Positions 5,495-42,453 of a stretch of 45,088 nucleotides of DNA are shown here, piece after piece; the first letter of the stretch is position 1, and each line of letters opens with the position of its first letter. A program made the position numbers and the translations under genes. The notes under the pieces are model-generated. The model did no database searches and was not told where the DNA came from. It saw only the letters and a list, made by a program, of their open reading frames with translations. This DNA comes from Coprothermobacterota bacterium. Lineage in GTDB: Bacteria > Caldisericota > JANLFM01. The stretch spans positions 1 to 45,088 of the forward strand of contig JAPLHX010000215.1 of assembly GCA_026389415.1 (NCBI GenBank), given 5' to 3'.

Positions 5495-6535
5495 ATGGGA
5501 AAGGGTAATCCGTTTGGTACCCACCGAGTGATCGAACCCCAAGGAGCAATGCCTCAGGCCGCTTGGAAACTAGATAATAATTTTTCTCAAATCTATGACA
5601 ACGAAATCTTAGTGGATGTGGAACGGTTGAATATCGATGCTGCAAGCTTCACGCAACTGGAAAGGGAGGCAGGGGAGGATCCGCAAAAGATCGCCGGACA
5701 AATCAAAAAGATCGTCAAGGACCGAGGCAAGATGCATAACCCCGTCACGGGTTCCGGTGGAATGTTCATTGGCACGGTGCGGGAAATTGGAAAGGCGATC
5801 CAGAATCATCGCGATCTGAAACATGGCGAATACATTGCCTCGCTGGTTTCTCTCTCCCTTACCCCCCTTTCCCTCAAGCGCATAAAAAAGATTGATCTAG
5901 AAAAAGACCAGGTAGAAATAGAGGGGCAAGCGATCCTCTTCGAGTCGGGCGTTTACGCTAAGCTTCCGCAAGACCTTCCTGCGCATCTAGCCCTGGCTGT
6001 GCTGGATGTTGCCGGTGCACCAGCCCAGACCGCAAGATTGGTAAAGCCGGGCGATACGGTGTTGGTGATTGGTGCGGGCGGTAAATCGGGTTTACTTTGC
6101 TTATACGAAGCAAAAAAGCGAGCCGGTGTAACGGGGAAAGTGATTGGACTTGGACACAGTGAGAACAGCACGGATCGAATCCGCGAATGCGGATTCGCCG
6201 ATCTGGTGATCCAGGGGGACGCGTCTAAGCCTTTGGAAATCTACGAAAAACTGATGGCAGCTACGCTTGGAAAATTGGTCGATGTCACCATCAATTGTGT
6301 AAATATCCCAGGAACGGAAATGGCATCAATTCTAAGCACAAGGGAGGGTGGAACGGTGTATTTCTTTACCATGGCTACCAGCTTCACGGCAGCTGCCTTG
6401 GGAGCGGAGGGGATTGGCAAGGACGTCACGATGATCATCGGAAATGGCTACGCAAAAGGTCACGACCAGATTACCCTGGAGTTGATGCGGGAAAACCCTA
6501 AGCTGCGAGAAATGTTTGAAAGGATGTTCCTATGA
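5495..6535 (+). CDS. kdd: L-erythro-3,5-diaminohexanoate dehydrogenase (lysine fermentation)
   Basis: The track ORF 5327..6535 overlaps argS. The internal ATG 5495 follows SD GAAAGGAG. MGKGNPFGTHRVIEPQGAMPQAAWKLDN... with a Rossmann motif VLVIGAGGKSG, ~346 aa, in a kam/kce gene context. Confidence 0.85.
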   Translation: MGKGNPFGTHRVIEPQGAMPQAAWKLDNNFSQIYDNEILVDVERLNIDAASFTQLEREAGEDPQKIAGQIKKIVKDRGKMHNPVTGSGGMFIGTVREIGKAIQNHRDLKHGEYIASLVSLSLTPLSLKRIKKIDLEKDQVEIEGQAILFESGVYAKLPQDLPAHLALAVLDVAGAPAQTARLVKPGDTVLVIGAGGKSGLLCLYEAKKRAGVTGKVIGLGHSENSTDRIRECGFADLVIQGDASKPLEIYEKLMAATLGKLVDVTINCVNIPGTEMASILSTREGGTVYFFTMATSFTAAALGAEGIGKDVTMIIGNGYAKGHDQITLELMRENPKLREMFERMFL

Positions 6536-7761
6536 TTTATTCGCCCAAGCGGACATGGCGGGAGATATCGCTTTGGCAATCCATAAGCAATGAAGAGTGG
6601 AACGACTGGCATTGGCAGCTGCGAAACCGGATCACGACTGTAGAGCAGTTGAAACTTGTCCTTCCTCTAACAGAGAAAGAAGAGCAAGGTATCCGCAGAG
6701 CTTTGACTAAATTCCGGATGGCGATTACCCCGTATTTCGCATCATTGATGGAGCCGGGGAATTCACAGTGTCCGATCCGATTGCAGGCTGTTCCGCAATT
6801 GGCGGAAACACAACTCAGCGAGCATGATTTGCTCGACCCCCTGCACGAAGATTGTGATTCCCCTGTGCCTGGCCTAACCCACCGGTACCCGGATCGAGTC
6901 CTATTGCTGGTAACGGATCAATGTGCCATGTATTGTCGCCATTGCACGAGAAGACGCTTTGCTGGGACCTATGACGGTTCCAGGTCGAAAGAGGAGCTGA
7001 TTTGCGCGATTGACTACATCCGCCAAACTCCGGTCATCCGAGATGTCGTGGTGTCTGGTGGGGATGGATTGCTATTGGAGCAGAGTCTGCTGGAATTTGT
7101 GCTGACGGAACTGCGAAAGATCCCGCACGTGGAAATCATCCGTATCGGATCTCGAGCACCGGTAACATTACCCCAAAGGATCACGGACGACTTGTTAATG
7201 ATGCTGCGACGATTTCAACCGATCTGGCTGAATACTCACTTCAATCACTCCCACGAGATTACCGTCGAATCCAAAGCCGCTTGTGAGCGTTTGGCTGATG
7301 CGGGGATCCCCCTGGGAAATCAAAGCGTTTTATTGCGGGGGATCAATGACTGCCCGACCGTGATGCGAAGGTTGGTGCATGATCTGCTTATGATCCGCGT
7401 TCGTCCTTACTATATCTACCAATGCGATTTATCCGAAGGGATTGCCCATTTTCGGACCTCTGTCCTGCGTGGAGTCGAGATTATCGAGAGTCTGCGTGGT
7501 CATACCAGCGGATTGGCTGTCCCGACCTTTGTTGTGGATGCTCCCGGTGGCGGAGGGAAGATCCCGTTAGGCCCCAACTATTTGCTTTCGATGTCTCCCG
7601 AGAAGATCGTTTTGCGGAACTACCACGGTGGCGTATTTTCCTATCCGGAACCAGCCGATTTCGAGTCGCATGACACCAGGCGGTGCCCGATTTGTCAGAA
7701 AGAAGCTGCCCCTTCTCTCTCCATCCTCGACGGTCAGATCGGACGATGGACGATAAAATGA
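6532..7761 (+). CDS. kamA: L-lysine 2,3-aminomutase (radical SAM, PLP)
   Basis: 409 aa. Radical-SAM CAMYCRHCTRRR (CxxxCxxC), plus the typical KamA N-terminal WNDWHWQLRNR and AITPYFASL. ATGA overlap with kdd. Confidence 0.95.
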   Translation: MIYSPKRTWREISLWQSISNEEWNDWHWQLRNRITTVEQLKLVLPLTEKEEQGIRRALTKFRMAITPYFASLMEPGNSQCPIRLQAVPQLAETQLSEHDLLDPLHEDCDSPVPGLTHRYPDRVLLLVTDQCAMYCRHCTRRRFAGTYDGSRSKEELICAIDYIRQTPVIRDVVVSGGDGLLLEQSLLEFVLTELRKIPHVEIIRIGSRAPVTLPQRITDDLLMMLRRFQPIWLNTHFNHSHEITVESKAACERLADAGIPLGNQSVLLRGINDCPTVMRRLVHDLLMIRVRPYYIYQCDLSEGIAHFRTSVLRGVEIIESLRGHTSGLAVPTFVVDAPGGGGKIPLGPNYLLSMSPEKIVLRNYHGGVFSYPEPADFESHDTRRCPICQKEAAPSLSILDGQIGRWTIK

Positions 7762-8690
7762 TCGGCAAGAACCTGCTATCGCAGCGGAGGGTCATCTCTG
7801 TAGTGGGTACAGGACGGGGGAGTGGCAAGACTACAACCTGCAACATGATTCTGGAACAGGCATCGAACTACCAAATACCTACAGGAGTGATTCCTTGCGG
7901 AAAAGGTGGTTCCGGCATTCCCATTTATCTGCCGGCGGGAGCATTGATCGCGTTGGCAAGGAATTGTGAACTTGTCAGTAAGTTGGAACTGCTAGAGCAA
8001 ACGAAAGCGAACACTCCCTGGGGAGAAGTTTGGATTGGTCGTGTCCGTGATGCTTGTGAAAGTCGAGTGGCAGGGCCCCTCTCTTTAGCTGATCTGGTGA
8101 TGGTTGCAAGGCAAATGCAGCGCTTAGGGGCAAAGCTGATTGTAGTAGATGGAACCATGGCACGAAAATCCATCACTTCAAGGACTCTCTGCGATTCCTT
8201 TGTCCTGGCTGTTGGAGTGGATTCGAACGAACGCAGTACCCGTCAAGAGGAAATCCGGCATCAGATCAACACGCTGAGAATGCCGTTAGCTGTTTACCCT
8301 CAACCACCGAAAACCGATCATTGTGCAATTTTTAACGGTTCAGATTGGCATCCGTTCCCCCACTTGGCGAAGGTGCCAAAGGAATACTGGGAGAAACCAT
8401 CTGTTGTATTTATCCGCGGAGCTTTTACAGAGTGGCATGCACCCTATCTCGATGGATTGGAGAATCCCAGTCAAATCATTGTAGAAGAACCATGGCGTAT
8501 GTTTCTGGCACGGGAGAGAGCGCAGAGTCTAAAATACCAAGGTTGGTCTTTTTCTGCGCTGCAACGATCGAGTTGCCTGGGCGTCACGATGAATCCGCAA
8601 GCGGTGAATGGGACCTTGGAGGACCTGAACGCAATCCGGCAGGGAGTGAGTATGGCTGAAGACATCGTGGCAATATTACCCACACCATGA
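7758..8690 (+). CDS. Uncharacterised P-loop NTPase
   Basis: Walker A VVGTGRGSGKTT and a Walker-B-like KLIVVDGT. ATG 7758 forms an ATGA overlap with the kamA stop (alternative ATG at 7746; the track start 7683 lies deep inside kamA). I recognise no other family signature. Confidence 0.65.
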   Translation: MIGKNLLSQRRVISVVGTGRGSGKTTTCNMILEQASNYQIPTGVIPCGKGGSGIPIYLPAGALIALARNCELVSKLELLEQTKANTPWGEVWIGRVRDACESRVAGPLSLADLVMVARQMQRLGAKLIVVDGTMARKSITSRTLCDSFVLAVGVDSNERSTRQEEIRHQINTLRMPLAVYPQPPKTDHCAIFNGSDWHPFPHLAKVPKEYWEKPSVVFIRGAFTEWHAPYLDGLENPSQIIVEEPWRMFLARERAQSLKYQGWSFSALQRSSCLGVTMNPQAVNGTLEDLNAIRQGVSMAEDIVAILPTP

Positions 8691-10147
8691 AGGATTTGTT
8701 TTTAGACACTGAAACCCGTTCCGGCTTGGAATGGGAGGAGTTTCTCGGGCTGGTTGAAGTTCAAAGCAGCCTCGGGTTCGATTTTAAGCGCCACTTGGCT
8801 CCTTTCAGTGCAGATCAACGCGATGCTATGAAACGCGAGTGGAAACGAACCGTTCGTTTCAGCGAATGGCTGAAAAAGCAAAAGGCCTGGACGATGGAAC
8901 TCACCACCGTTTTGCGGGAAGTACGCGACGTGCACAGATCACTGGAAAGAGCGCGAGAGGGAATGATTCTGACAATTGCAGAATTGTATGAAATCAAGCG
9001 CTTCCTTTTCGCCTGTTTGCAAGTTCGTGATTTGCTCAAGCCGATTGCATTGCGATTTCTGTCTAGATACCGGCCTCATGATTCAACCCTCCTCCATCGC
9101 TTTTTCTGCAAAGGGAACCAGAGTCCTCAAACATTCGCCATCGTCGACGCCTACTCTCCTGGCCTGGCTGAAATTCGCCGAAAAAAGAAAAAGCTCTTGA
9201 CGCAATCGGAGATGAACCAACCGGCTTGGAAGGAAAAACGCCTTCAATTGGAACAACAAGAAGATGACGAAGAGAAACGTATTCGTCAAACCCTCAGCCA
9301 ATCCGTAGCCGCCGAAAGCGACCTTCTGCTGACCGATACCCGAAGGCTTGCAAATCTAGATTTTCTGACGGGTAAGAGTCTATTGAGCCTTCAATACCGC
9401 GGTGTAAGTCCCGAGTTGCTGTCATTGCGCAGCCGGAAAGCCATAACCATCGAAGACGGTGTGCATTGGCCGATGGCACTGCGCTGGAAGGAGCGTGGAG
9501 TGCGCTTCCAACCAATTACATTGGACGCCGGAAAAGGAGCGCTACTGATTACGGGAGCAAACATGTCCGGCAAGACTGTCTTGTTGAAAACAATCGGTTT
9601 ACTGGTTGCGATGGCTCAATACGGTTTTTTGATTCCTGCGCGTTGCATGTCATTTCTCCCCCGCCAATTTCTATTCTTTTCCACCCGGGGTCGCGAGCCA
9701 GATGGACTGAGTGCATACGGGATCGAGATTGCCGGAGTGAAACGCGTTCTAAAACAGGATGTATCCGATGGCCTGCTGTTGTTTGATGAACTTGCTCGGG
9801 GAACCAACCCTCAAGAGGGGTTCGCCATCAACGCGGCTTTGCTAACCTATCTGCAACAAAAGCAGGCACCAGCGATTCTAACGTCGCATTTCGAGGGTTT
9901 AGCGAACCTCTGTAACGTGGATCACTGGCAGATGAGTGGTTTGGGAGCCATCACGTTGGATCAGGTGAAAGCTCTCACCAAAGGGATTGGAGAAGAACTG
10001 ATCATCAAACTGATGAGCTATCGGTTGGAGCGAGTCGAGCGGGACCGGCCGATTCCTCGCGATGCTTTAAAGATTGCTGTAATGCTTGGATTGAACCCTG
10101 ACGTGATAGAATTGGCTGAAAAATACCTCGAGCAAACTCCCCAATGA
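8687..10147 (+). CDS. MutS-domain-V-like ABC ATPase; no mismatch-binding or Smr domain recognisable
   Basis: 486 aa. Walker A ITGANMSGKTVLLKTIGL, Walker B LLLFDELARGTNPQEG, and TSHF downstream, matching the MutS ATPase core. The N-terminal ~270 aa is helical and charged with no MutS domain I motif. ATGA overlaps on both sides. Confidence 0.75.
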   Translation: MKDLFLDTETRSGLEWEEFLGLVEVQSSLGFDFKRHLAPFSADQRDAMKREWKRTVRFSEWLKKQKAWTMELTTVLREVRDVHRSLERAREGMILTIAELYEIKRFLFACLQVRDLLKPIALRFLSRYRPHDSTLLHRFFCKGNQSPQTFAIVDAYSPGLAEIRRKKKKLLTQSEMNQPAWKEKRLQLEQQEDDEEKRIRQTLSQSVAAESDLLLTDTRRLANLDFLTGKSLLSLQYRGVSPELLSLRSRKAITIEDGVHWPMALRWKERGVRFQPITLDAGKGALLITGANMSGKTVLLKTIGLLVAMAQYGFLIPARCMSFLPRQFLFFSTRGREPDGLSAYGIEIAGVKRVLKQDVSDGLLLFDELARGTNPQEGFAINAALLTYLQQKQAPAILTSHFEGLANLCNVDHWQMSGLGAITLDQVKALTKGIGEELIIKLMSYRLERVERDRPIPRDALKIAVMLGLNPDVIELAEKYLEQTPQ

Positions 10148-11706
10148 AGCTAGCAATTTCCTCCGAGCAAGTTCAACATTGCCGGGCTATGGCCCTAGCA
10201 ATTGCTCACGAAGTGCAGATGGAGATTTCTCGAATGAGCACAATATCGGTGGAGCGATCCCTTCTGCGGTTGTTGGGCATGGAAGGTGCTACAGCAGGCA
10301 TACCTTGGGTGAACGTATTCCTAGAACAAATTCAAGAGCACAATGTTTTAGAAGACGGCGCTCTGTACTGGCTCGGAAATACGTTGTGTGCAACAGATCT
10401 CTCCATTTCCCAGATCGGTCAGGAAGTAGGGGAGGGTAGGCTGGATGTCGTCAAAACGGTGAGACACCCCTTGAAGGACATTCAAGCAAGCATTGCAGCC
10501 GTCACGATGGAGAGTTTAAGACGGATTTTTCTTTTGCGTGCGCAACGAAGACAATTTAGAAATGGTTTACCAATCCATGTTTCGCCTCTTCTTTATGTCA
10601 TCGTAGCTAGTGGGAATATCCACGACGATATTGCCCAAGCCAAAGCAGCTGCCGAGCAAGGTGCGGATGTAATCGCTGTGATTCGCTCTACTGCCCAGAG
10701 TCTGCTGGATTTTGTGCCAGAAGGAGTGACGACGGAAGGTTTTGGAGGTACCTATGCCACACAGGCAAATTATCGCCTGATGCGGGCAGCATTGGACGAA
10801 GTCTCGCGCAAAACAGGCCGATACATCCACCAGGTAAATTACTGTTCCGGGCTTTGCATGGCAGAAATTGCGGCCTTGGCGATATTGGAAGGCTTAGACC
10901 TGATGGTCAACGACGCGCTTTATGGCATCCTGTTCCGAGATTTGAACATGGTGCGAACCATGATAGACCAGCATTTTTCCCGTTACCTGCTCGGTCTGTT
11001 TGACTTGATCATCGTCACGGGGGAAGACAATTTGATTAAAACCGTAGATGCCTTCCAAGAATACTACATCGTACTGACTTCACAGTTCATCAATGAACAG
11101 CTGGCCAAACAAGCTGGTATGGAGGAGAAACAAATCGGTTTAGGACACGCCGCAGAATTGGATCCTTCCTTGCCGGATAGTTTTTTATGGGAATTGGTAC
11201 AGGCACAATTGGTTCGACAAATCTTCCCCCATTCTCCAGTGAAATTCATGCCTCCCACGCGTTACATATCCGGCAATATATTTTTCGCGCATGTGCTGGA
11301 TACCCTCTTTAACCTAGTGGCCATTTGGACTGGACAAGAAATCATATTATTGGGGATGCCGACAGAAGGAATTCATACACCGTACGTACAGGACCGCTAT
11401 CTCAGCCTGGAAAGCGCTATGCACTTGCGCTCCGCAGCCTGCTCCTTACGGAAAGAACTAAATTTCCGACAGAATGGGAAATCGAAAGCGCGTGCACAGG
11501 GGATTTTGGATCAAACGGAAAGCACATTGTCCGAAATCGAGCAAATTGGTCTATGGACGGCACTGAACCGGGGAATGTTCTCCCAAATCAAACGTAGCCG
11601 AAAAGGAGGGCGCGGCTATGAAGGTGTATTTCCGATCAGCCAGTTCTATTTGAATCCTTTTCTGGACCAGGAACTGGTAAAGCGGGCACGGAAAATTGCG
11701 CGATGA
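10144..11706 (+). CDS. kamD: Lysine 5,6-aminomutase alpha subunit (D-lysine / L-beta-lysine)
   Basis: 520 aa, the size of KamD, placed immediately upstream of the B12-binding subunit. TIM-barrel-like sequence with GADVIAVIRSTAQS. The call is by overall resemblance plus operon context. Confidence 0.85.
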   Translation: MKLAISSEQVQHCRAMALAIAHEVQMEISRMSTISVERSLLRLLGMEGATAGIPWVNVFLEQIQEHNVLEDGALYWLGNTLCATDLSISQIGQEVGEGRLDVVKTVRHPLKDIQASIAAVTMESLRRIFLLRAQRRQFRNGLPIHVSPLLYVIVASGNIHDDIAQAKAAAEQGADVIAVIRSTAQSLLDFVPEGVTTEGFGGTYATQANYRLMRAALDEVSRKTGRYIHQVNYCSGLCMAEIAALAILEGLDLMVNDALYGILFRDLNMVRTMIDQHFSRYLLGLFDLIIVTGEDNLIKTVDAFQEYYIVLTSQFINEQLAKQAGMEEKQIGLGHAAELDPSLPDSFLWELVQAQLVRQIFPHSPVKFMPPTRYISGNIFFAHVLDTLFNLVAIWTGQEIILLGMPTEGIHTPYVQDRYLSLESAMHLRSAACSLRKELNFRQNGKSKARAQGILDQTESTLSEIEQIGLWTALNRGMFSQIKRSRKGGRGYEGVFPISQFYLNPFLDQELVKRARKIAR

Positions 11707-12446
11707 CGTCGATCGAGGAAGTGCGACCGTATGGAGATCGTTTGAATGACGGAGCAATCCAGATCTCCTTTAGCTTGCCAATTCCCCTTTCGGCCCAATC
11801 TAAAGAAGCTGCAAAACAGGTCGCCGGCAAGCTCGGACTGGAGCATTTGCGGCTGATTTATGCGCAAGATCTCGGCAATTCGTTTTCCTTTTACATCATC
11901 TATGGGAGAACCAGCGGTTCCATAAATCTCTCATCTATCCATATTCCTACCGTAGATATCCCCCAGATGGATTTTTGGCAGATCAATGATCTACTAGCGC
12001 ATGAATTAAAAAAAACAGTCACTGTAGTAGGAGCGACAATGGGTGCGGACGCGCACACAGTCGGACTGGATGCCATTCTGAGTGCAAAGGGTTTCGGCGG
12101 AGAATCCGGGTTGGAACGCTATCCCCAGTTCAAGATTTACAACCTGGGAGCTCAAGTACCCGCCGAGGAAGTATTGCGCGAGATCATTGAGCAAAAAGCA
12201 GATGTTGCATTGATTTCGCAAGTTGTCACGCAGAGACAATCCCATCTGCAAAACTTGTCGTATTTGGAGGATCTCTTGGAAGGGGAAGAATTGCGCCAGG
12301 ATCTCATCCTGATCTGTGGTGGTCCGTACATCGATACGGAGGTTGCCCTAGAAGTTGGATTCGATGCAGGGTTCGGCCCTGGCACGACACCTTCCCAGGT
12401 AGCCAGCTTTGTTGTAAACGAGTTACTAAGGCGGAGACGAGCTTGA
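11703..12446 (+). CDS. kamE: Lysine 5,6-aminomutase beta subunit (B12- and PLP-binding)
   Basis: 247 aa. Cobalamin base-off/His-on motif GADAHTVGLD (DxHxxG) and a Rossmann-like B12 domain ending in CGGP. ATGA overlap with kamD. Confidence 0.88.
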   Translation: MTSIEEVRPYGDRLNDGAIQISFSLPIPLSAQSKEAAKQVAGKLGLEHLRLIYAQDLGNSFSFYIIYGRTSGSINLSSIHIPTVDIPQMDFWQINDLLAHELKKTVTVVGATMGADAHTVGLDAILSAKGFGGESGLERYPQFKIYNLGAQVPAEEVLREIIEQKADVALISQVVTQRQSHLQNLSYLEDLLEGEELRQDLILICGGPYIDTEVALEVGFDAGFGPGTTPSQVASFVVNELLRRRRA

Positions 12447-14056
12447 GCAAATTCATCTTCATCACTGGAGGTGTGGTCTCAGGACTGGGCAAGGGGATTC
12501 TTACTGCGTCCATCGGTGCCTTGGTCAAAGCCCGTGGTTTATCTGCCACAATGCTGAAATTCGATCCCTATCTGAACGTGGATGCAGGGACCATGAGCCC
12601 TTATCAGCACGGGGAAGTATTCGTCTTAAACGATGGAGCGGAAACGGATTTGGATCTCGGTCATTATGAACGGTTCATCGATGAAGATCTGACTCGTCTC
12701 TCCAACGTCACTTCTGGAAAGATCTATTCAAGCGTGATCACCCGTGAACGGCGTGGGGATTACCTGGGGGCCACTGTGCAAATGATTCCGCATGTTACCG
12801 ACGAGATAAAACAGACGATCCGTCTATTGGCTCACGAATCGACCGCAGAGGTGCTTGTGATAGAGATTGGCGGCACAGTCGGCGATATTGAAGGATTGCC
12901 TTTCCTGGAAGCCATTCGACAATTCCGCAGGGATTCTCAGCCACAAGAGGTTCTCTACATACACACGACTTTGGTACCATTTCTCGATCCCAGTGGTGAA
13001 CAGAAAACAAAACCTACACAGCATAGTGTGCGGGAGCTTCGCAGCATCGGAATACAACCTGATGTGATTGTGTGTCGCTCTAATCTGCCGATTTCCGGAA
13101 AAATGAGAAACAAGGTTGCCCTCTTTTGCGATGTGCAGCCAAATGAGGTAATCTCTCTTCCCGACTTGGAATCCATTTATCGCGTTCCTATCTTCCTGGA
13201 ACGAGAAGGCCTGGCGCCGATTCTGGATCGGTTCATCGGCAAGCATCGCAAAACAGACTTATCAAAATGGGAACGTTTAGACCGGATCCTCGAAAGTGTA
13301 CGTCCCACCGTGCAAATCGGACTGGTCGGTAAGTATGTTGGGATGCGCGATACCTATATTTCGGTCACAGAAGCCATAAAGCACGCAGGTTTTGAGGTTG
13401 GGGTGGAACCTCAAGTGAAATGGATCGACGCGGAGAAACTCGAAAAAGCGGGCACGGAAAAAACACTGAACACATTGGACGGAATCATCGTTCCGGGTGG
13501 TTTTGATAACCGAGGCGTTGAGGGCAAGATCCTAGCGATCCGTTATGCACGGGAACAGCAGATGCCATTCCTTGGTCTTTGTTTGGGGATGCAATGTGCC
13601 GTGATTGAATTTGCCCGCAACGTCTGTGGATTGCAGCGTGCAAATAGTACGGAGTTCGATGCCAAGACGCCCGACCCTGTCATTTACCTATTGCCCAACC
13701 AACGTGGACGAAAAGAGAAAGGTGGAACCATGCGACTTGGAGCTTTTCCATGTCGACTGAAGATTGGCAGTAAAGCCCACCAAGCGTATGGTTTGGATGT
13801 TGTACAAGAACGACACCGGCATCGTTTTGAGTTAAACAATCGTTATCGAATGATGTTTGAGGAAGCAGGGTTGATCGTATCTGGGAATTATGAGGAGAAA
13901 AATCTGGCAGAAGTAATGGAAATCACGGATCACCCATGGTTTGTTGGGAGTCAGTTTCACCCGGAACTGACTTCGCGACCAGGCAAAGCGAATCCACTCT
14001 TCCGCCAGTTCGTAGATGCATGCTCCAGGAGGGCGGAAGCGAAATGGAAAAGCTGA
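12443..14056 (+). CDS. pyrG: CTP synthase
   Basis: 537 aa. N-terminus SKFIFITGGVVSGLGKG and glutamine amidotransferase motif PFLGLCLGMQ. The TTG start forms a TTGA overlap with the kamE stop. Confidence 0.96.
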   Translation: MSKFIFITGGVVSGLGKGILTASIGALVKARGLSATMLKFDPYLNVDAGTMSPYQHGEVFVLNDGAETDLDLGHYERFIDEDLTRLSNVTSGKIYSSVITRERRGDYLGATVQMIPHVTDEIKQTIRLLAHESTAEVLVIEIGGTVGDIEGLPFLEAIRQFRRDSQPQEVLYIHTTLVPFLDPSGEQKTKPTQHSVRELRSIGIQPDVIVCRSNLPISGKMRNKVALFCDVQPNEVISLPDLESIYRVPIFLEREGLAPILDRFIGKHRKTDLSKWERLDRILESVRPTVQIGLVGKYVGMRDTYISVTEAIKHAGFEVGVEPQVKWIDAEKLEKAGTEKTLNTLDGIIVPGGFDNRGVEGKILAIRYAREQQMPFLGLCLGMQCAVIEFARNVCGLQRANSTEFDAKTPDPVIYLLPNQRGRKEKGGTMRLGAFPCRLKIGSKAHQAYGLDVVQERHRHRFELNNRYRMMFEEAGLIVSGNYEEKNLAEVMEITDHPWFVGSQFHPELTSRPGKANPLFRQFVDACSRRAEAKWKS

Positions 14057-14862
14057 TAATTACAGTTGCAATTTGTGGGGCGGAAGCCAGAAAGCTGGAT
14101 AACCCCGCATTACCGGTAACGCCGGAGGAAATTGCACAAGAAGCTTATAAATCCTATTTAGCTGGGGCGTCTGTCGTCCATCTCCATGTGCGAGATCAAC
14201 ATGGGAACCCCAGTCAAGATGTTGGGAACTTCCGGTATGCAATGGAATTGATTCGACAAAAATGCGACATGATCATCCAAATCTCTACAGGAGGTGCCAT
14301 TGGAGCCTCTCCCGAGGAACGGGTAGCGCCATTGGAACTTATGCCCGAGATGGCTTCGCTGACATGTGGAACGGTGAATTTTGGTGAAGGAGTGTTTTGG
14401 AATCCGCCTAACCTGATCACTGGTTTCGCAAGAAGAATGAAAGAGCTGGGAGTCAGACCAGAAATCGAAGTCTTTGAAGCGGGCATGATCCAAAATGCCT
14501 TAAATCTTGTGAAGAAAGGATTATTGGATTCGCCACTTCATTTCGATTTTGTAATGGGCGTACCCGGTGGAATTACCGGTTATTTGCGCGATCTTATTTA
14601 CTTGAGCGAGACAGTTCCACCGGGATCGACTTGGACTGTAGCAGGTATCGGCCGTTTTGAACTTCCTTTAGCTGTTGCTGCGATCATTTTGGGCGGTCAC
14701 GTTCGAGTTGGTTTTGAGGACAACATCTACTATCGAAAAGATGTTTTGGCTGAAAGTAACGCCCAGTTAGTGGAAAGGGTTAAGCGGATTGCGCTCGAAC
14801 TGGGGAGAGAGATCGCTACTCCTGCAGAAGCGCGCCGGATCCTTCATATATCCCGTGATTGA
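14044..14862 (+). CDS. kce: 3-keto-5-aminohexanoate cleavage enzyme (BKACE/DUF849 family)
   Basis: The internal ATG 14044 overlaps the pyrG stop by 13 nt. MEKLIITVAICGAE...VHLHVRD...IQISTGG...GGHVRVGFEDN is typical of BKACE. About 272 aa. Confidence 0.85.
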   Translation: MEKLIITVAICGAEARKLDNPALPVTPEEIAQEAYKSYLAGASVVHLHVRDQHGNPSQDVGNFRYAMELIRQKCDMIIQISTGGAIGASPEERVAPLELMPEMASLTCGTVNFGEGVFWNPPNLITGFARRMKELGVRPEIEVFEAGMIQNALNLVKKGLLDSPLHFDFVMGVPGGITGYLRDLIYLSETVPPGSTWTVAGIGRFELPLAVAAIILGGHVRVGFEDNIYYRKDVLAESNAQLVERVKRIALELGREIATPAEARRILHISRD

Positions 14863-15478
14863 AGAAGAGAAGATTGGTTCATTTCTTGAATCGCTGTGCT
14901 CTAGTAGCCCAACGCCTGGCGGCGGTGCTGTCAGTGGGCTTTGTGCCGCTTCGGCTGCTGCACTTGGGGCAATGGTCGCGGCGCTTTCTCAAGGAGAGAA
15001 ATACGCCGCAATCCGCCAACAAATGGCCGAATGGCAAGAGAAGTTTGCGAGCAAAAGCCTAGAGTTTCTCGAGCTGGGAGAGCAAGATGTGAAAGCTTTC
15101 CAGAAAGTGATGGCTGCTTATCGAATGCCGAGAGAGAATCCCTTGGATCGTCAAACGGCAATCCAAGCCGCATTAAAGCAAGCATCGCTCGTACCGTTAC
15201 AACTTGCGCGCGGGATGATTGAACTGTCACCCGGAATCCAGTTTCTGGCAATAAACGGAAATCGGAATGTCCTAAGCGATGTTGGAGTCGCATCCTCTGC
15301 AGCAGAGGCTGCTTTAGCCTCTGCCCAGATCAATGTCCTTGTGAATTTGATGGCCATTAAAGATAGGCAATTTGCTGCGGAAATGCATCAAATCCTTGAG
15401 CAGGAAGTCATCCCAGCCAGAGGCGAATTCCACCAGCAAACCGAATCCATTATCAAAGCTCTTGAAGGAGGAATCTAA
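14855..15478 (+). CDS. Cyclodeaminase/cyclohydrolase family protein (FTCD C-terminal-domain-like)
   Basis: FLESLCSSSPTPGGGAVSGLCAASAAALGAMVAALS is the hallmark N-terminal motif of the formiminotransferase-cyclodeaminase C-domain / methenyl-THF cyclohydrolase family. All-helical, ~207 aa. The likely GTG start at 14855 overlaps the kce stop (the track start 14789 lies inside kce). Confidence 0.7.
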   Translation: MIEEEKIGSFLESLCSSSPTPGGGAVSGLCAASAAALGAMVAALSQGEKYAAIRQQMAEWQEKFASKSLEFLELGEQDVKAFQKVMAAYRMPRENPLDRQTAIQAALKQASLVPLQLARGMIELSPGIQFLAINGNRNVLSDVGVASSAAEAALASAQINVLVNLMAIKDRQFAAEMHQILEQEVIPARGEFHQQTESIIKALEGGI

Positions 15479-41412: not shown

Positions 41413-42453
41413 GTGGAAATGTTATTCCGGAATATCATGATTCTCCTGATTGATCTTGCACTAGGTGCGTTGATGGGTTTAGAAATTCGACTTTCTCTTT
41501 TGGGTAAATTATTCGTTGAGCCTTTTTGCCATTGGATGCCCGCTCTCTTTTTCGCGTTACTGGTCTTGTGGATTTTGCTTTCCCTAGTGATTACCCAGCG
41601 TTGGATTTGGACATTAGGCGGAACGACGCTCGCCCTGCTTGCCGCCACCGCGATCCCGCTTTTCGATCAGCTGGCGTTAGTCACGGTGGATCAATGGATC
41701 AGTCTTTTGCTTTTCTTCCTTTTTGTGCTCGTTTCCACTTTTCTTGTATCTTTTTTTGCGGAATACGGACATCGCCTCATTCCCTTCCAACAAGCTGCCC
41801 GACAAAGTAAAGTAAAATTGCACTCCCCTGCAGGACCCTTTTGGTTTTTGTTCAGCCTAGCTGCCGGTGCGATATTTGCCATCACTCTCTACAACGGTTG
41901 GATCCCCCAGACCTATGTTTCCTTCCTAGGCTCAACGGAAAGTTTTCGTCTGGCATTTTATCTACTGTTTGGTACCATCGGCGGTATTCTTACCATTAGT
42001 CCTAGCTGGGCTGCTCTTTCTGCGTTTATCTTCGTCTTTTTTAGTGAATTCCTCTACCTGTTCTTTTACACTGCATACGCATCTTTTGGACAAATGCTTT
42101 CTTCTTTGACCAACTTGTTCATCGATCCGTATCGTATTACAGCTCCCGTGGCACTGCTGGTTGTCAGTACCCTTTGGTCCCTTACCGCAGGTGGATATAC
42201 TCAGCGATATTTTCTGCTACGGGAAGTGAAACGAGAAGAGGGCAGGATCGTACCATTGGCGACCGAGGTGAACCCTGCACAGCAAGAAATAGGGATCGAA
42301 CCGACCGAAGGAGCAAGATCCGTGGGTACCGACAATCCTCTTCTTCTGGAGGTGACATCGGTTCTTTTACCTTGCCCGAATTGTGGCAGGGTTTTAGAGA
42401 AGGAAGCTCAGTATTGTCCAGGTTGTGGCATTGAGCGGATCAGCAAAGTGTGA
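41413..42453 (+). CDS. Polytopic membrane protein with C-terminal zinc ribbon (hypothetical)
   Basis: About 8 hydrophobic helices, then a charged linker, then LPCPNCGRVLEKEAQYCPGCG. The start is GTG 41413 or ATG 41419. Confidence 0.6.
   Translation: MEMLFRNIMILLIDLALGALMGLEIRLSLLGKLFVEPFCHWMPALFFALLVLWILLSLVITQRWIWTLGGTTLALLAATAIPLFDQLALVTVDQWISLLLFFLFVLVSTFLVSFFAEYGHRLIPFQQAARQSKVKLHSPAGPFWFLFSLAAGAIFAITLYNGWIPQTYVSFLGSTESFRLAFYLLFGTIGGILTISPSWAALSAFIFVFFSEFLYLFFYTAYASFGQMLSSLTNLFIDPYRITAPVALLVVSTLWSLTAGGYTQRYFLLREVKREEGRIVPLATEVNPAQQEIGIEPTEGARSVGTDNPLLLEVTSVLLPCPNCGRVLEKEAQYCPGCGIERISKV

Follow-up and report, generated by a model that had tools for sequence, protein, structure and literature searches.

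Two open reading frames (ORFs) lying between the lysine aminomutase genes kamA and kamD in a 45,088-nt stretch of DNA (contig JAPLHX010000215.1, GCA_026389415.1, forward strand; the whole stretch is called the window here, and all coordinates refer to it) encode KamC and a divergent KamB, members of the two protein families named as lysine 5,6-aminomutase reactivase. The pair, KamBC, is best read, at a probability of about 65%, as a nucleotide-driven accessory factor of the aminomutase KamDE, equivalent to the classical E2 fraction, in which a KamC dimer would displace the B12 domain of KamE and release damaged cobalamin, with KamB as adaptor. The evidence for this reading comes from family identity, predicted fold, intact catalytic sites, the loss of the Smr nuclease and of the clamp, co-transcription and conserved linkage. 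The reactivase assignment itself is already in curated databases, and the idea is reasonable, not new. An earlier, sequence-only reading of this DNA stated that no gene had been assigned to the ATP-dependent fraction; this is outdated, as NCBIfam (NF052383 and NF052386), RefSeq and UniRef already name a reactivase, and RefSeq and UniRef homologues bear the reactivase or KamB name. Its wider proposal, an accessory NTPase pair for the adenosylcobalamin (AdoCbl)-dependent lysine 5,6-aminomutase built by repurposing the MutS ATPase fold, gains support from the curated equivalogs, from neighbourhood conservation and from a predicted MutS2-core fold.

The two ORFs and their motifs are as follows, with invariance given for A1, an alignment and profile of 17 KamC-like proteins with 544 positions, and for A2 and A3, which are alignments of KamB.

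7758..8690, + strand: ORF1, kamB-like, 310 amino acids (aa), 34.2 kDa; NF052386 at 128 bits, short of its cutoff (210)
7806..7835, + strand: KamB Walker A, GTGRGSGKTT, residues 17-26; G17, G23, K24 and T25 invariant in A2 and A3
8133..8153, + strand: KamB Walker B, KLIVVDG, residues 126-132, followed by R136; D131 and R136 invariant in A2 and A3
8687..10147, + strand: ORF2, kamC, 486 aa, 55.6 kDa; NF052383 at 401.8 bits, cutoff 300
9200..9223, + strand: KamC lever-helix hairpin tip, residues ~172-179; site of the clamp (domain IV-like) insert of long-form KamC and MutS2, absent here
9554..9577, + strand: KamC Walker A, GANMSGKT, residues 290-297; G290, N292, M293, G295 and K296 invariant in A1
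9704..9727, + strand: KamC trans-acting signature of ATP-binding cassette (ABC) type, GLSAYGIE, residues 340-347; G340, L341, S342 and E347 invariant in A1
9782..9811, + strand: KamC Walker B and D-loop, FDELARGTNP, residues 366-375; D367, E368, R371, T373, N374 and P375 invariant in A1
9881..9892, + strand: KamC H-loop, TSHF, residues 399-402; H401 invariant in A1

Family and predicted fold of KamC and KamB

ORF2 passes the NCBIfam (release 20) equivalog NF052383, "lysine 5,6-aminomutase reactivase ATPase KamC", at E 4.7e-120, with residues 15-481 aligned to profile positions 2-508 of 508. Every testable feature of membership in the KamC family, i.e. score, architecture lacking Smr, motifs and adjacency to kamD, is present. 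Within Pfam the protein matches MutS_V (8.6e-23), MutS_III is sub-threshold (17.8 bits, cutoff 34.1), and no match is obtained to MutS_I, MutS_II, MutS_IV or Smr. Profile searches of the two proteins thus give MutS_V in ORF2 only, a generic sub-threshold P-loop in ORF1, and no intact mismatch- or DNA-binding domain. The motifs quoted in the sequence-only reading (GTGRGSGKTT, GANMSGKT, FDELARGTNP and TSHF) are all present, and its observation that ORF2 has neither a mismatch-recognition N-terminal domain nor Smr holds. The step from there to an unlikely role in DNA repair is sound for Smr but not for the mismatch domain, which the MutS2 ancestor of KamC never had and whose absence is therefore uninformative. 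What is informative is the loss of the MutS2 C-terminus with its Smr nuclease and, in the lineage of the window, of the clamp.

The descent of KamC from MutS2 is indicated by several comparisons. Searched against sequences of the PDB, the A1 profile finds Bacillus subtilis MutS2 (7qv3) at 1.9e-59, with A1 positions 6-467 of 544 corresponding to MutS2 residues 1-455, and in the protein database the family nearest after the KamC-like proteins is full-length MutS2 with Smr (~1e-21). An AlphaFold2 (AF2) model of KamC (predicted local distance difference test, pLDDT, 91; predicted template modelling score, pTM, 0.89) has as its best Foldseek matches the MutS2 structures 9a5o, 7qv3, 7vuk/7vuf (the Thermus thermophilus MutS2 core) and 9kce (Thermotoga maritima), at template modelling (TM) scores of 0.70-0.78. 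By profile and by predicted structure, KamC is a MutS2-derived ABC-type ATPase core and not a trimmed mismatch-repair MutS. Two narrower identities were tried and given up. KamC is not a MutS1 mismatch-repair protein, as it lacks matches to MutS_I, II and IV, scores far below the cutoffs of the MutS1 models (NF003810, 104.8 bits against 480; TIGR01070, 72.5 bits against 641.7) and has no clamp insert. Nor is it a member of MutS2 as modelled by TIGR01069, for which it reaches 165.7 of the 400 bits required; it has no Smr and ends ~85 residues past the H-loop.

All catalytic motifs of KamC are intact, including the catalytic Glu of Walker B, and GLSAYGIE aligns to the LSTFSSH motif of MutS2. A1 is homologous to E. 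coli MutS as far as residue 794 of its 800, and the C-terminal region of MutS holds a helix-turn-helix that embraces the partner subunit. Together with the signature motif, homology through this region implies that KamC would be a dimer with composite ATP sites.

The clamp is missing at the tip of the lever. In A1 the window KamC shows a gap of ~60 columns (189-250), the same segment of long-form KamC being aligned with a beta-rich part of MutS2, and in the AF2 model helices 158-172 and 179-237 make a bare hairpin with no beta domain between them. The nearest sister lineages, L001 and L002 (P0005-P0017, 509-596 aa), retain a clamp-like insert, and in a neighbour-joining (NJ) tree the window KamC is nested within this long-form clade. 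The nesting indicates that the 486-aa protein lost the clamp secondarily, in its own lineage. Other KamC proteins, at 450-500 aa, are for the most part short and clamp-less too.

ORF1 has a single NCBIfam match, NF052386, "lysine 5,6-aminomutase reactivase subunit KamB" (128.4 bits, E 2.8e-37), in which residues 13-296 align to profile positions 1-313 of 326. The ATG at 7758 is taken as its start since it is favoured by the alignment of homologues; a GTG upstream at 7683 would give an ORF1 of 335 aa. Eleven positions, G17, G23, K24, T25, N29, G48, G89, G106, P107, D131 and R136, do not vary in either A2 or A3. ORF1 agrees with the KamB family in homology, in these residues and in context but not in the curated score and one loop, and it is accordingly classed as a divergent member. 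Annotation pipelines that apply the curated cutoff would probably call such a gene hypothetical.

No Pfam family was found for KamB among 30 members scanned, which gave only generic P-loop matches at E >= 1e-3, the window ORF1 likewise remaining sub-threshold. The KamB profile finds only marginal matches among PDB sequences (cyclic 2,3-diphosphoglycerate synthetase, cDPGS, 0.021; MobB, 0.095). Foldseek with the AF2 model (pLDDT 85.7) gives a best E of 4.5e-3 and query-normalised TM scores (TMq) of at most 0.37, the top matches all belonging to the SIMIBI class (FlhG/MinD, MobB, ParF, SRP54 NG and cDPGS). KamB is thus predicted to consist of an N-terminal SIMIBI-type P-loop NTPase domain carrying a beta insert, with an alpha/beta domain at the C-terminus; profile search of the PDB and Foldseek reveal no solved structural relative. 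MobB, cDPGS, DUF1611, CobW and MeaB were each considered as relatives; sequence matches to them are sub-threshold and Foldseek matches weak, and for this reason KamB is placed at the level of the SIMIBI class only. A G3E GTPase (MeaB/ArgK or CobW) in particular is not indicated: the cobW Pfam family is matched by 3 of the 30 members (best E 0.35), and no G3E structure is among the 50 top Foldseek matches.

Gene order, overlapping starts and linkage to kamDE

The genes of lysine fermentation that surround kamB and kamC, together with an intervening pyrG, are the following.

5495..6535, + strand: kdd, L-erythro-3,5-diaminohexanoate dehydrogenase (lysine fermentation); NF052381 at 278 bits, cutoff 200
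6532..7761, + strand: kamA, radical S-adenosylmethionine (SAM) lysine 2,3-aminomutase; TIGR03820 at 591 bits, cutoff 525; Pfam LAM_C and Radical_SAM
10144..11706, + strand: kamD; NF052384 at 688.6 bits, cutoff 600; Pfam Lys-AminoMut_A at 3e-205
11703..12446, + strand: kamE; NF052385 at 313.8 bits, cutoff 280; Pfam OAM_dimer and B12-binding
12443..14056, + strand: pyrG (CTP synthase), between kamE and kce
~14044..14862, + strand: kce, a pathway gene separated from kamE by pyrG; NF052387 at 427 bits, cutoff 382

The start of kdd is taken as the Met that yields 346 aa, the length at which the orthologue in L161 is also called. The ORF map bears out that two ORFs stand between kamA and kamDE and are joined by ATGA overlaps at 7758 (kamA/ORF1), 8687 (ORF1/ORF2) and 10144 (ORF2/kamD). 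Further ATGA overlaps occur at 6532 (kdd/kamA) and 11703 (kamD/kamE), and kamE and pyrG share a TTGA at 12443, so that six consecutive 4-nt overlaps run from kdd through pyrG. In the rest of the window the ORF lists give three others (20529, 24998 and 32149) among ~25 junctions; the cluster is enriched in them. On reading the junction sequences, no purine run resembling a Shine-Dalgarno sequence is seen before the start of kamC or kamD, which fits coupling by termination and reinitiation. kamB and kamC share a transcript with kamA and kamDE and are translationally coupled to them. Of the earlier suggestion that the overlaps argue for coupled, stoichiometric expression, coupling and co-transcription stand; stoichiometry does not follow, as such overlaps occur elsewhere and the chain includes pyrG. 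With a housekeeping gene inside the chain, the overlaps speak for coupling and are no proof of shared function.

Linkage across genomes was assessed in two sets of 80 loci, one anchored on kamC (one genome per species, flanks limited to +/-10 kb) and the other on kamD in metagenome contigs. kamD is present in 54/80 kamC-anchored loci and lies directly downstream in 42/80; in 14 more the flanks are too short for a judgement, and 8 lack kamD despite at least 8 kb on both sides. With diverse KamB queries, kamB is found in 69/80 kamC loci. In the metagenome set kamC is present in 52/80 loci, 43 of these also with kamB, and kamC adjoins kamD in 39/80; 19 loci are uninformative (<3 kb upstream) and 9 lack kamC despite at least 3 kb upstream. 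A pair that commonly occurs without kamDE, which would have spoken against the association, is not the pattern found at the neighbourhood level.

The order kamB-kamC-kamD-kamE is found again in Clostridia, Tissierellia, Fusobacteria, Bacteroidales, Anaerolineaceae, Riflebacteria and contigs of metagenome-assembled genomes (MAGs) labelled Promethearchaeum (Asgard). The commonest arrangement is kamA-kamB-kamC, and the window order kamA-kamB-kamC-kamD-kamE is that of most members. Oscillospiraceae display another, kamB-kamC...kce-kdd-kamA-kamD-kamE, with kamA abutting kamD (L010, L028, L137 and L145). In L110 (6256-13136) the order is kdd-kamB-kamC-kamD-kamE-kce, and kamA is missing from the 10 kb upstream and the 5 kb downstream; the pair stays with kamDE when kamA is gone, which links it to kamDE rather than to kamA. 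L003 and L005 also show kamB-kamC-kamD-kamE, their contigs ending just upstream of kamB, and in L005 no kamA is present in the 7.6 kb after kamE. The same gene order, with a KamC 95% identical to that of the window, is found in JGI and Logan contigs, and the nearest named relatives are at most ~51% identical for KamC and at most ~39% for KamB.

Two sets of homologues merit separate mention. The Promethearchaeum-binned contigs carrying kamB-kamC-kamD-kamE are L003 (215-3811) and L005 (64-4924); in the NJ tree their KamC branches among sequences of Clostridium and related clostridia, which suggests that they arose either by horizontal transfer or as an artefact of binning. In L099, L112 (10001-12424), L102, L111, L126, L135 and L149, kamD or kamDE homologues of ~49-50% identity are accompanied by no other lysine-fermentation gene and by no kamBC in the available flanks, and these may serve in the context of another pathway.

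In the window as a whole (G+C content 49%), every called gene is on the + strand, packing is tight, and overlaps are frequent. Most of the genes are housekeeping genes (argS, purB, pyrG, rho, thyX, tdk, prfA, nusA, infB, truB, pnp, rnj, ftsK and ychF), and the stretch appears to be part of the compact chromosome of an uncultured lineage. The insertion of pyrG in the lysine-fermentation operon is not confined to it, as the order kamE-pyrG-kce is kept in the related lineages L001, L002, L081, L161 and L162. Between kce and a thiolase gene, 14855-15478 encodes an FTCD_C-like protein of the cyclodeaminase/cyclohydrolase fold, with 38-44% identity to counterparts in L002 and L081; against the FchA model it scores 161.7 bits, below the cutoff of 275. 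Because no kal or kat gene is recognised within the window, this gene might supply the missing step, deamination of 3-aminobutyryl-CoA. At 41413-42453, an ORF of 346 aa has no Pfam match at E <= 1e-5.

Proposed reactivation of KamDE and its alternatives

The enzyme now called KamDE is the E1 of classical work. E1 is active alone and undergoes rapid, substrate-dependent suicide inactivation to cob(III)alamin in vitro (PMC3958899), and this self-inactivation in turnover is an obstacle to studying the enzyme and to the biocatalytic use proposed for it (PMC3958899). E2, a protein of ~80 kDa, is needed for the ATP-dependent activation or reactivation of E1 and makes ATP an allosteric activator, recombinant KamDE alone showing no ATP response (PMC3958899, PMC9081730). 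That response is reportedly restored by OraS, a protein of the ornithine system, and E2 has been reported to possess AdoCbl synthetase activity, with label transferred from [8-14C]ATP to E1 (both PMC3958899). KamB and KamC here sum to 89.8 kDa, of the same order of size as E2. In the cluster figure of Perret et al. (2011) the two genes are labelled "HP" and "mutS".

The following course of events may be envisaged for KamBC. KamDE, which depends on AdoCbl and pyridoxal phosphate (PLP), would be suicide-inactivated by its substrate, leaving cob(III)alamin tightly bound. A KamC dimer carrying KamB would dock onto the inactivated enzyme, and its change from open to closed, driven by ATP as is typical of MutS-family dimers, would pull the Rossmann (B12) domain of KamE off KamD. 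The damaged cofactor could then exit and fresh AdoCbl bind. KamB, by analogy with the G-protein chaperones of B12 mutases, could be a nucleotide-gated adaptor or cofactor gate. Physical interaction, the stoichiometry of the complex, ejection of the cofactor and the role of KamB thus all enter as parts of the proposal. A precedent for a MutS2-type ATPase working on a macromolecular complex other than DNA is the structure of MutS2 with the collided disome (7qv3); the publication behind it is said to describe MutS2 using ATP to split collided-ribosome complexes.

Several observations weigh against this reading. The window KamB, at 128.4 bits, falls short of the curated cutoff of 210, and in its clade the motif GKGGSGI is followed by a deletion of 9 residues in the conserved TSIGRDGE...KP loop after strand 2, which explains the low scores of the clade. 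KamB and KamC pairs occur with no kamDE within 10 kb (L014, L042, L052 and L057), and kamDE clusters with no kamBC within 10 kb (L099, L112 and L153). Solo KamC-like genes in Bacteroidales MAGs (L040, L053, L060, L061, L067, L069, L077 and L080; L163-L165, 10001-11503) pass the KamC cutoff at 397-456 bits with no kamB or kamDE within 10 kb. As regards E2, no conserved cysteine that would account for its description as a "sulfhydryl protein" is present in the lists of invariant residues of KamB and KamC, and nothing obvious in either fold explains an AdoCbl-synthetase-like activity. No open-access paper naming KamB or KamC for the aminomutase, or reporting their biochemistry, was found in the searchable literature, and genome context may be all that underlies the curated names. 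The equation of the pair with E2 made in the sequence-only reading therefore stands only in so far as the curated equivalogs and the neighbourhoods agree with it, direct proof having not been found in that literature.

Some of the exceptions can be accommodated. In the NJ tree the kamBC pairs unlinked to kamDE interleave with linked ones, and reciprocal kamDE clusters without kamBC exist (L153), which suggests that the exceptions, including those in Clostridia, are split loci and not different functions. Pfam scans of large neighbouring ORFs reveal no B12 enzyme beside the kamBC loci that lack kamDE, the neighbours being transketolase, penicillin-binding protein (PBP), YidC, GlmS, leucine-rich repeat (LRR) proteins and ABC transporters. 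For the solo genes of Bacteroidales, of which one (P0031) adjoins a ribosomal-protein operon and Tex in a housekeeping context, either the NCBIfam model over-calls or the proteins have another client or function.

Four other explanations were considered. The most durable of them, though unlikely, is that KamBC activates or regulates KamDE allosterically in dependence on ATP, tuning it by binding, with no exchange of damaged cofactor. The conversion of ATP into an activator of E1 by E2, and the silence of recombinant KamDE towards ATP on its own, are what such a regulator would produce (PMC3958899, PMC9081730), and the genomic linkage fits it as well as it fits a reactivase. However, restoration of the response by OraS, which is unrelated to KamBC, makes KamBC unneeded for the effect, and the rapid suicide inactivation of KamDE in vitro creates a need for repair (PMC3958899). 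Two NTPases that both look complete and hydrolysis-competent also exceed what a ligand sensor requires.

Slightly less probable again is a module for cofactor loading or adenosylation, in which KamB would make or escort AdoCbl and KamC would gate its insertion, like the adenosyltransferase and MeaB of methylmalonyl-CoA mutase. KamB is of the SIMIBI class, as are G3E chaperones such as MeaB, and none of the genes in the window can be recognised as an adenosyltransferase. The reported AdoCbl synthetase activity of E2 and its label transfer to E1 (PMC3958899) point the same way, but the old E2 preparation may have held a contaminating adenosyltransferase. KamB shows no significant similarity to the adenosyltransferases CobA, PduO and EutT or to G3E GTPases, and no such structure is among its top 50 Foldseek matches.

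It is improbable that KamC is a truncated MutS2 paralogue still acting on nucleic acids or ribosomes, in recombination control or ribosome rescue, and placed in the lysine cluster by operon packing. Its nearest characterised relatives are indeed MutS2 proteins, pyrG is in the same chain of overlaps, the cluster is embedded among housekeeping genes, and the solo genes of Bacteroidales adjoin ribosomal-protein operons and Tex. Against this, linkage of the gene to kamDE and kamB is kept across many phyla and gene orders, far beyond the lineage of the window; Smr, MutS_I, II and IV are absent and the TIGR01069 score is less than half its cutoff; and the clamp, the domain by which MutS proteins contact DNA, is missing from most KamC proteins including this one. 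Least probable of all is service to KamA, e.g. loading or repair of its iron-sulphur (Fe-S) cluster: kamB starts inside the stop codon of kamA, the kamA-first order is the commonest, and some SIMIBI NTPases deliver metal cofactors, but kamBC lies upstream of kce-kdd-kamA in the Oscillospiraceae-type loci, accompanies kamDE without kamA in L110 and, as far as the contigs extend, in L003 and L005, and genes of the KamA family, ablA and epmB among them, are found without KamBC-like partners.

A further claim can be put forward tentatively, at somewhat less than even odds: that KamBC is the first MutS-family machine to act on a protein enzyme rather than on DNA or the ribosome, a clamp-less MutS2 dimer prying open the B12 domain and ejecting damaged cobalamin together with KamB, a SIMIBI protein without structural precedent. 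Should this be true, it would be a third independent solution to the repair of B12 enzymes, besides the Hsp70-like reactivases and the G3E chaperones, and the solo KamC-like genes of Bacteroidales would hint at further client enzymes. Knowing the genes of the ATP-dependent repair factor makes the old question of E2 directly testable, although the assignment predates the analysis of this window, whose pair comes from an uncultured lineage within families already named. What is added here is that KamC is specifically a MutS2 core, that most KamC proteins are clamp-less, that KamB has no solved structural relative, and that solo genes of Bacteroidales without an aminomutase in their neighbourhood are also caught by the KamC model.

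Comparison with known systems

The closest counterparts are the NCBIfam KamC and KamB families themselves. ORF2 passes the KamC cutoff, KamB is the sole family match of ORF1, near full length, and the gene order is the same. The window proteins depart from their relatives at two points: KamB and its clade score 100-153 bits on NF052386, as against 300-375 bits for canonical KamB, 9 residues of the GRDGE...KP loop being gone, and KamC lacks the clamp insert present in the nearest sister lineages.

KamC is like MutS2/RqcU (7qv3, 7vuf/7vuk and 9kce) in its N-terminal core, its lever and its ABC-type ATPase with Walker A and B, signature and H-loop. It differs in having neither Smr nor any other C-terminal extension past the ATPase domain, and the window KamC has lost the clamp as well. 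In genomes its gene is partnered by those of KamB and KamDE, not by genes of translation or recombination.

The E2 of the Clostridium sticklandii lysine mutase (Baker, Stadtman and colleagues, 1970s) resembles KamBC as an ATP-dependent accessory factor of E1 of similar mass. Identity of the two is not demonstrated in the accessible literature, no conserved cysteine was found in KamBC, and neither fold offers an obvious explanation for the AdoCbl-synthetase activity reported for E2.

The job proposed for KamBC would be that of the reactivases DdrAB/GdrAB and EutA, namely to rid a suicide-inactivated AdoCbl radical enzyme of damaged cobalamin in an ATP-dependent manner. DdrAB/GdrAB, which serve diol and glycerol dehydratases, are encoded next to the genes of their enzymes, and ATP-dependent release of damaged cobalamin by the dehydratase reactivase is said to have been described by Toraya and Mori in 1999. 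These reactivases, EutA included, are Hsp70/actin-like ATPases. Membership of KamBC in this type is rejected, as Foldseek returns MutS-family structures for KamC and SIMIBI P-loop structures for KamB, with no actin-like reactivase among the top matches. The MeaB/MMAA-type G3E chaperones of methylmalonyl-CoA mutase share with KamB the broad SIMIBI class and a gene position beside a B12 mutase, and the analogy of a cofactor gate is plausible; KamB differs by the lack of specific G3E similarity and by its extra beta insert and C-terminal domain. It is thus plausible, by analogy, that KamBC works like the DdrAB/GdrAB/EutA reactivases and the MeaB-type chaperones while belonging to neither.

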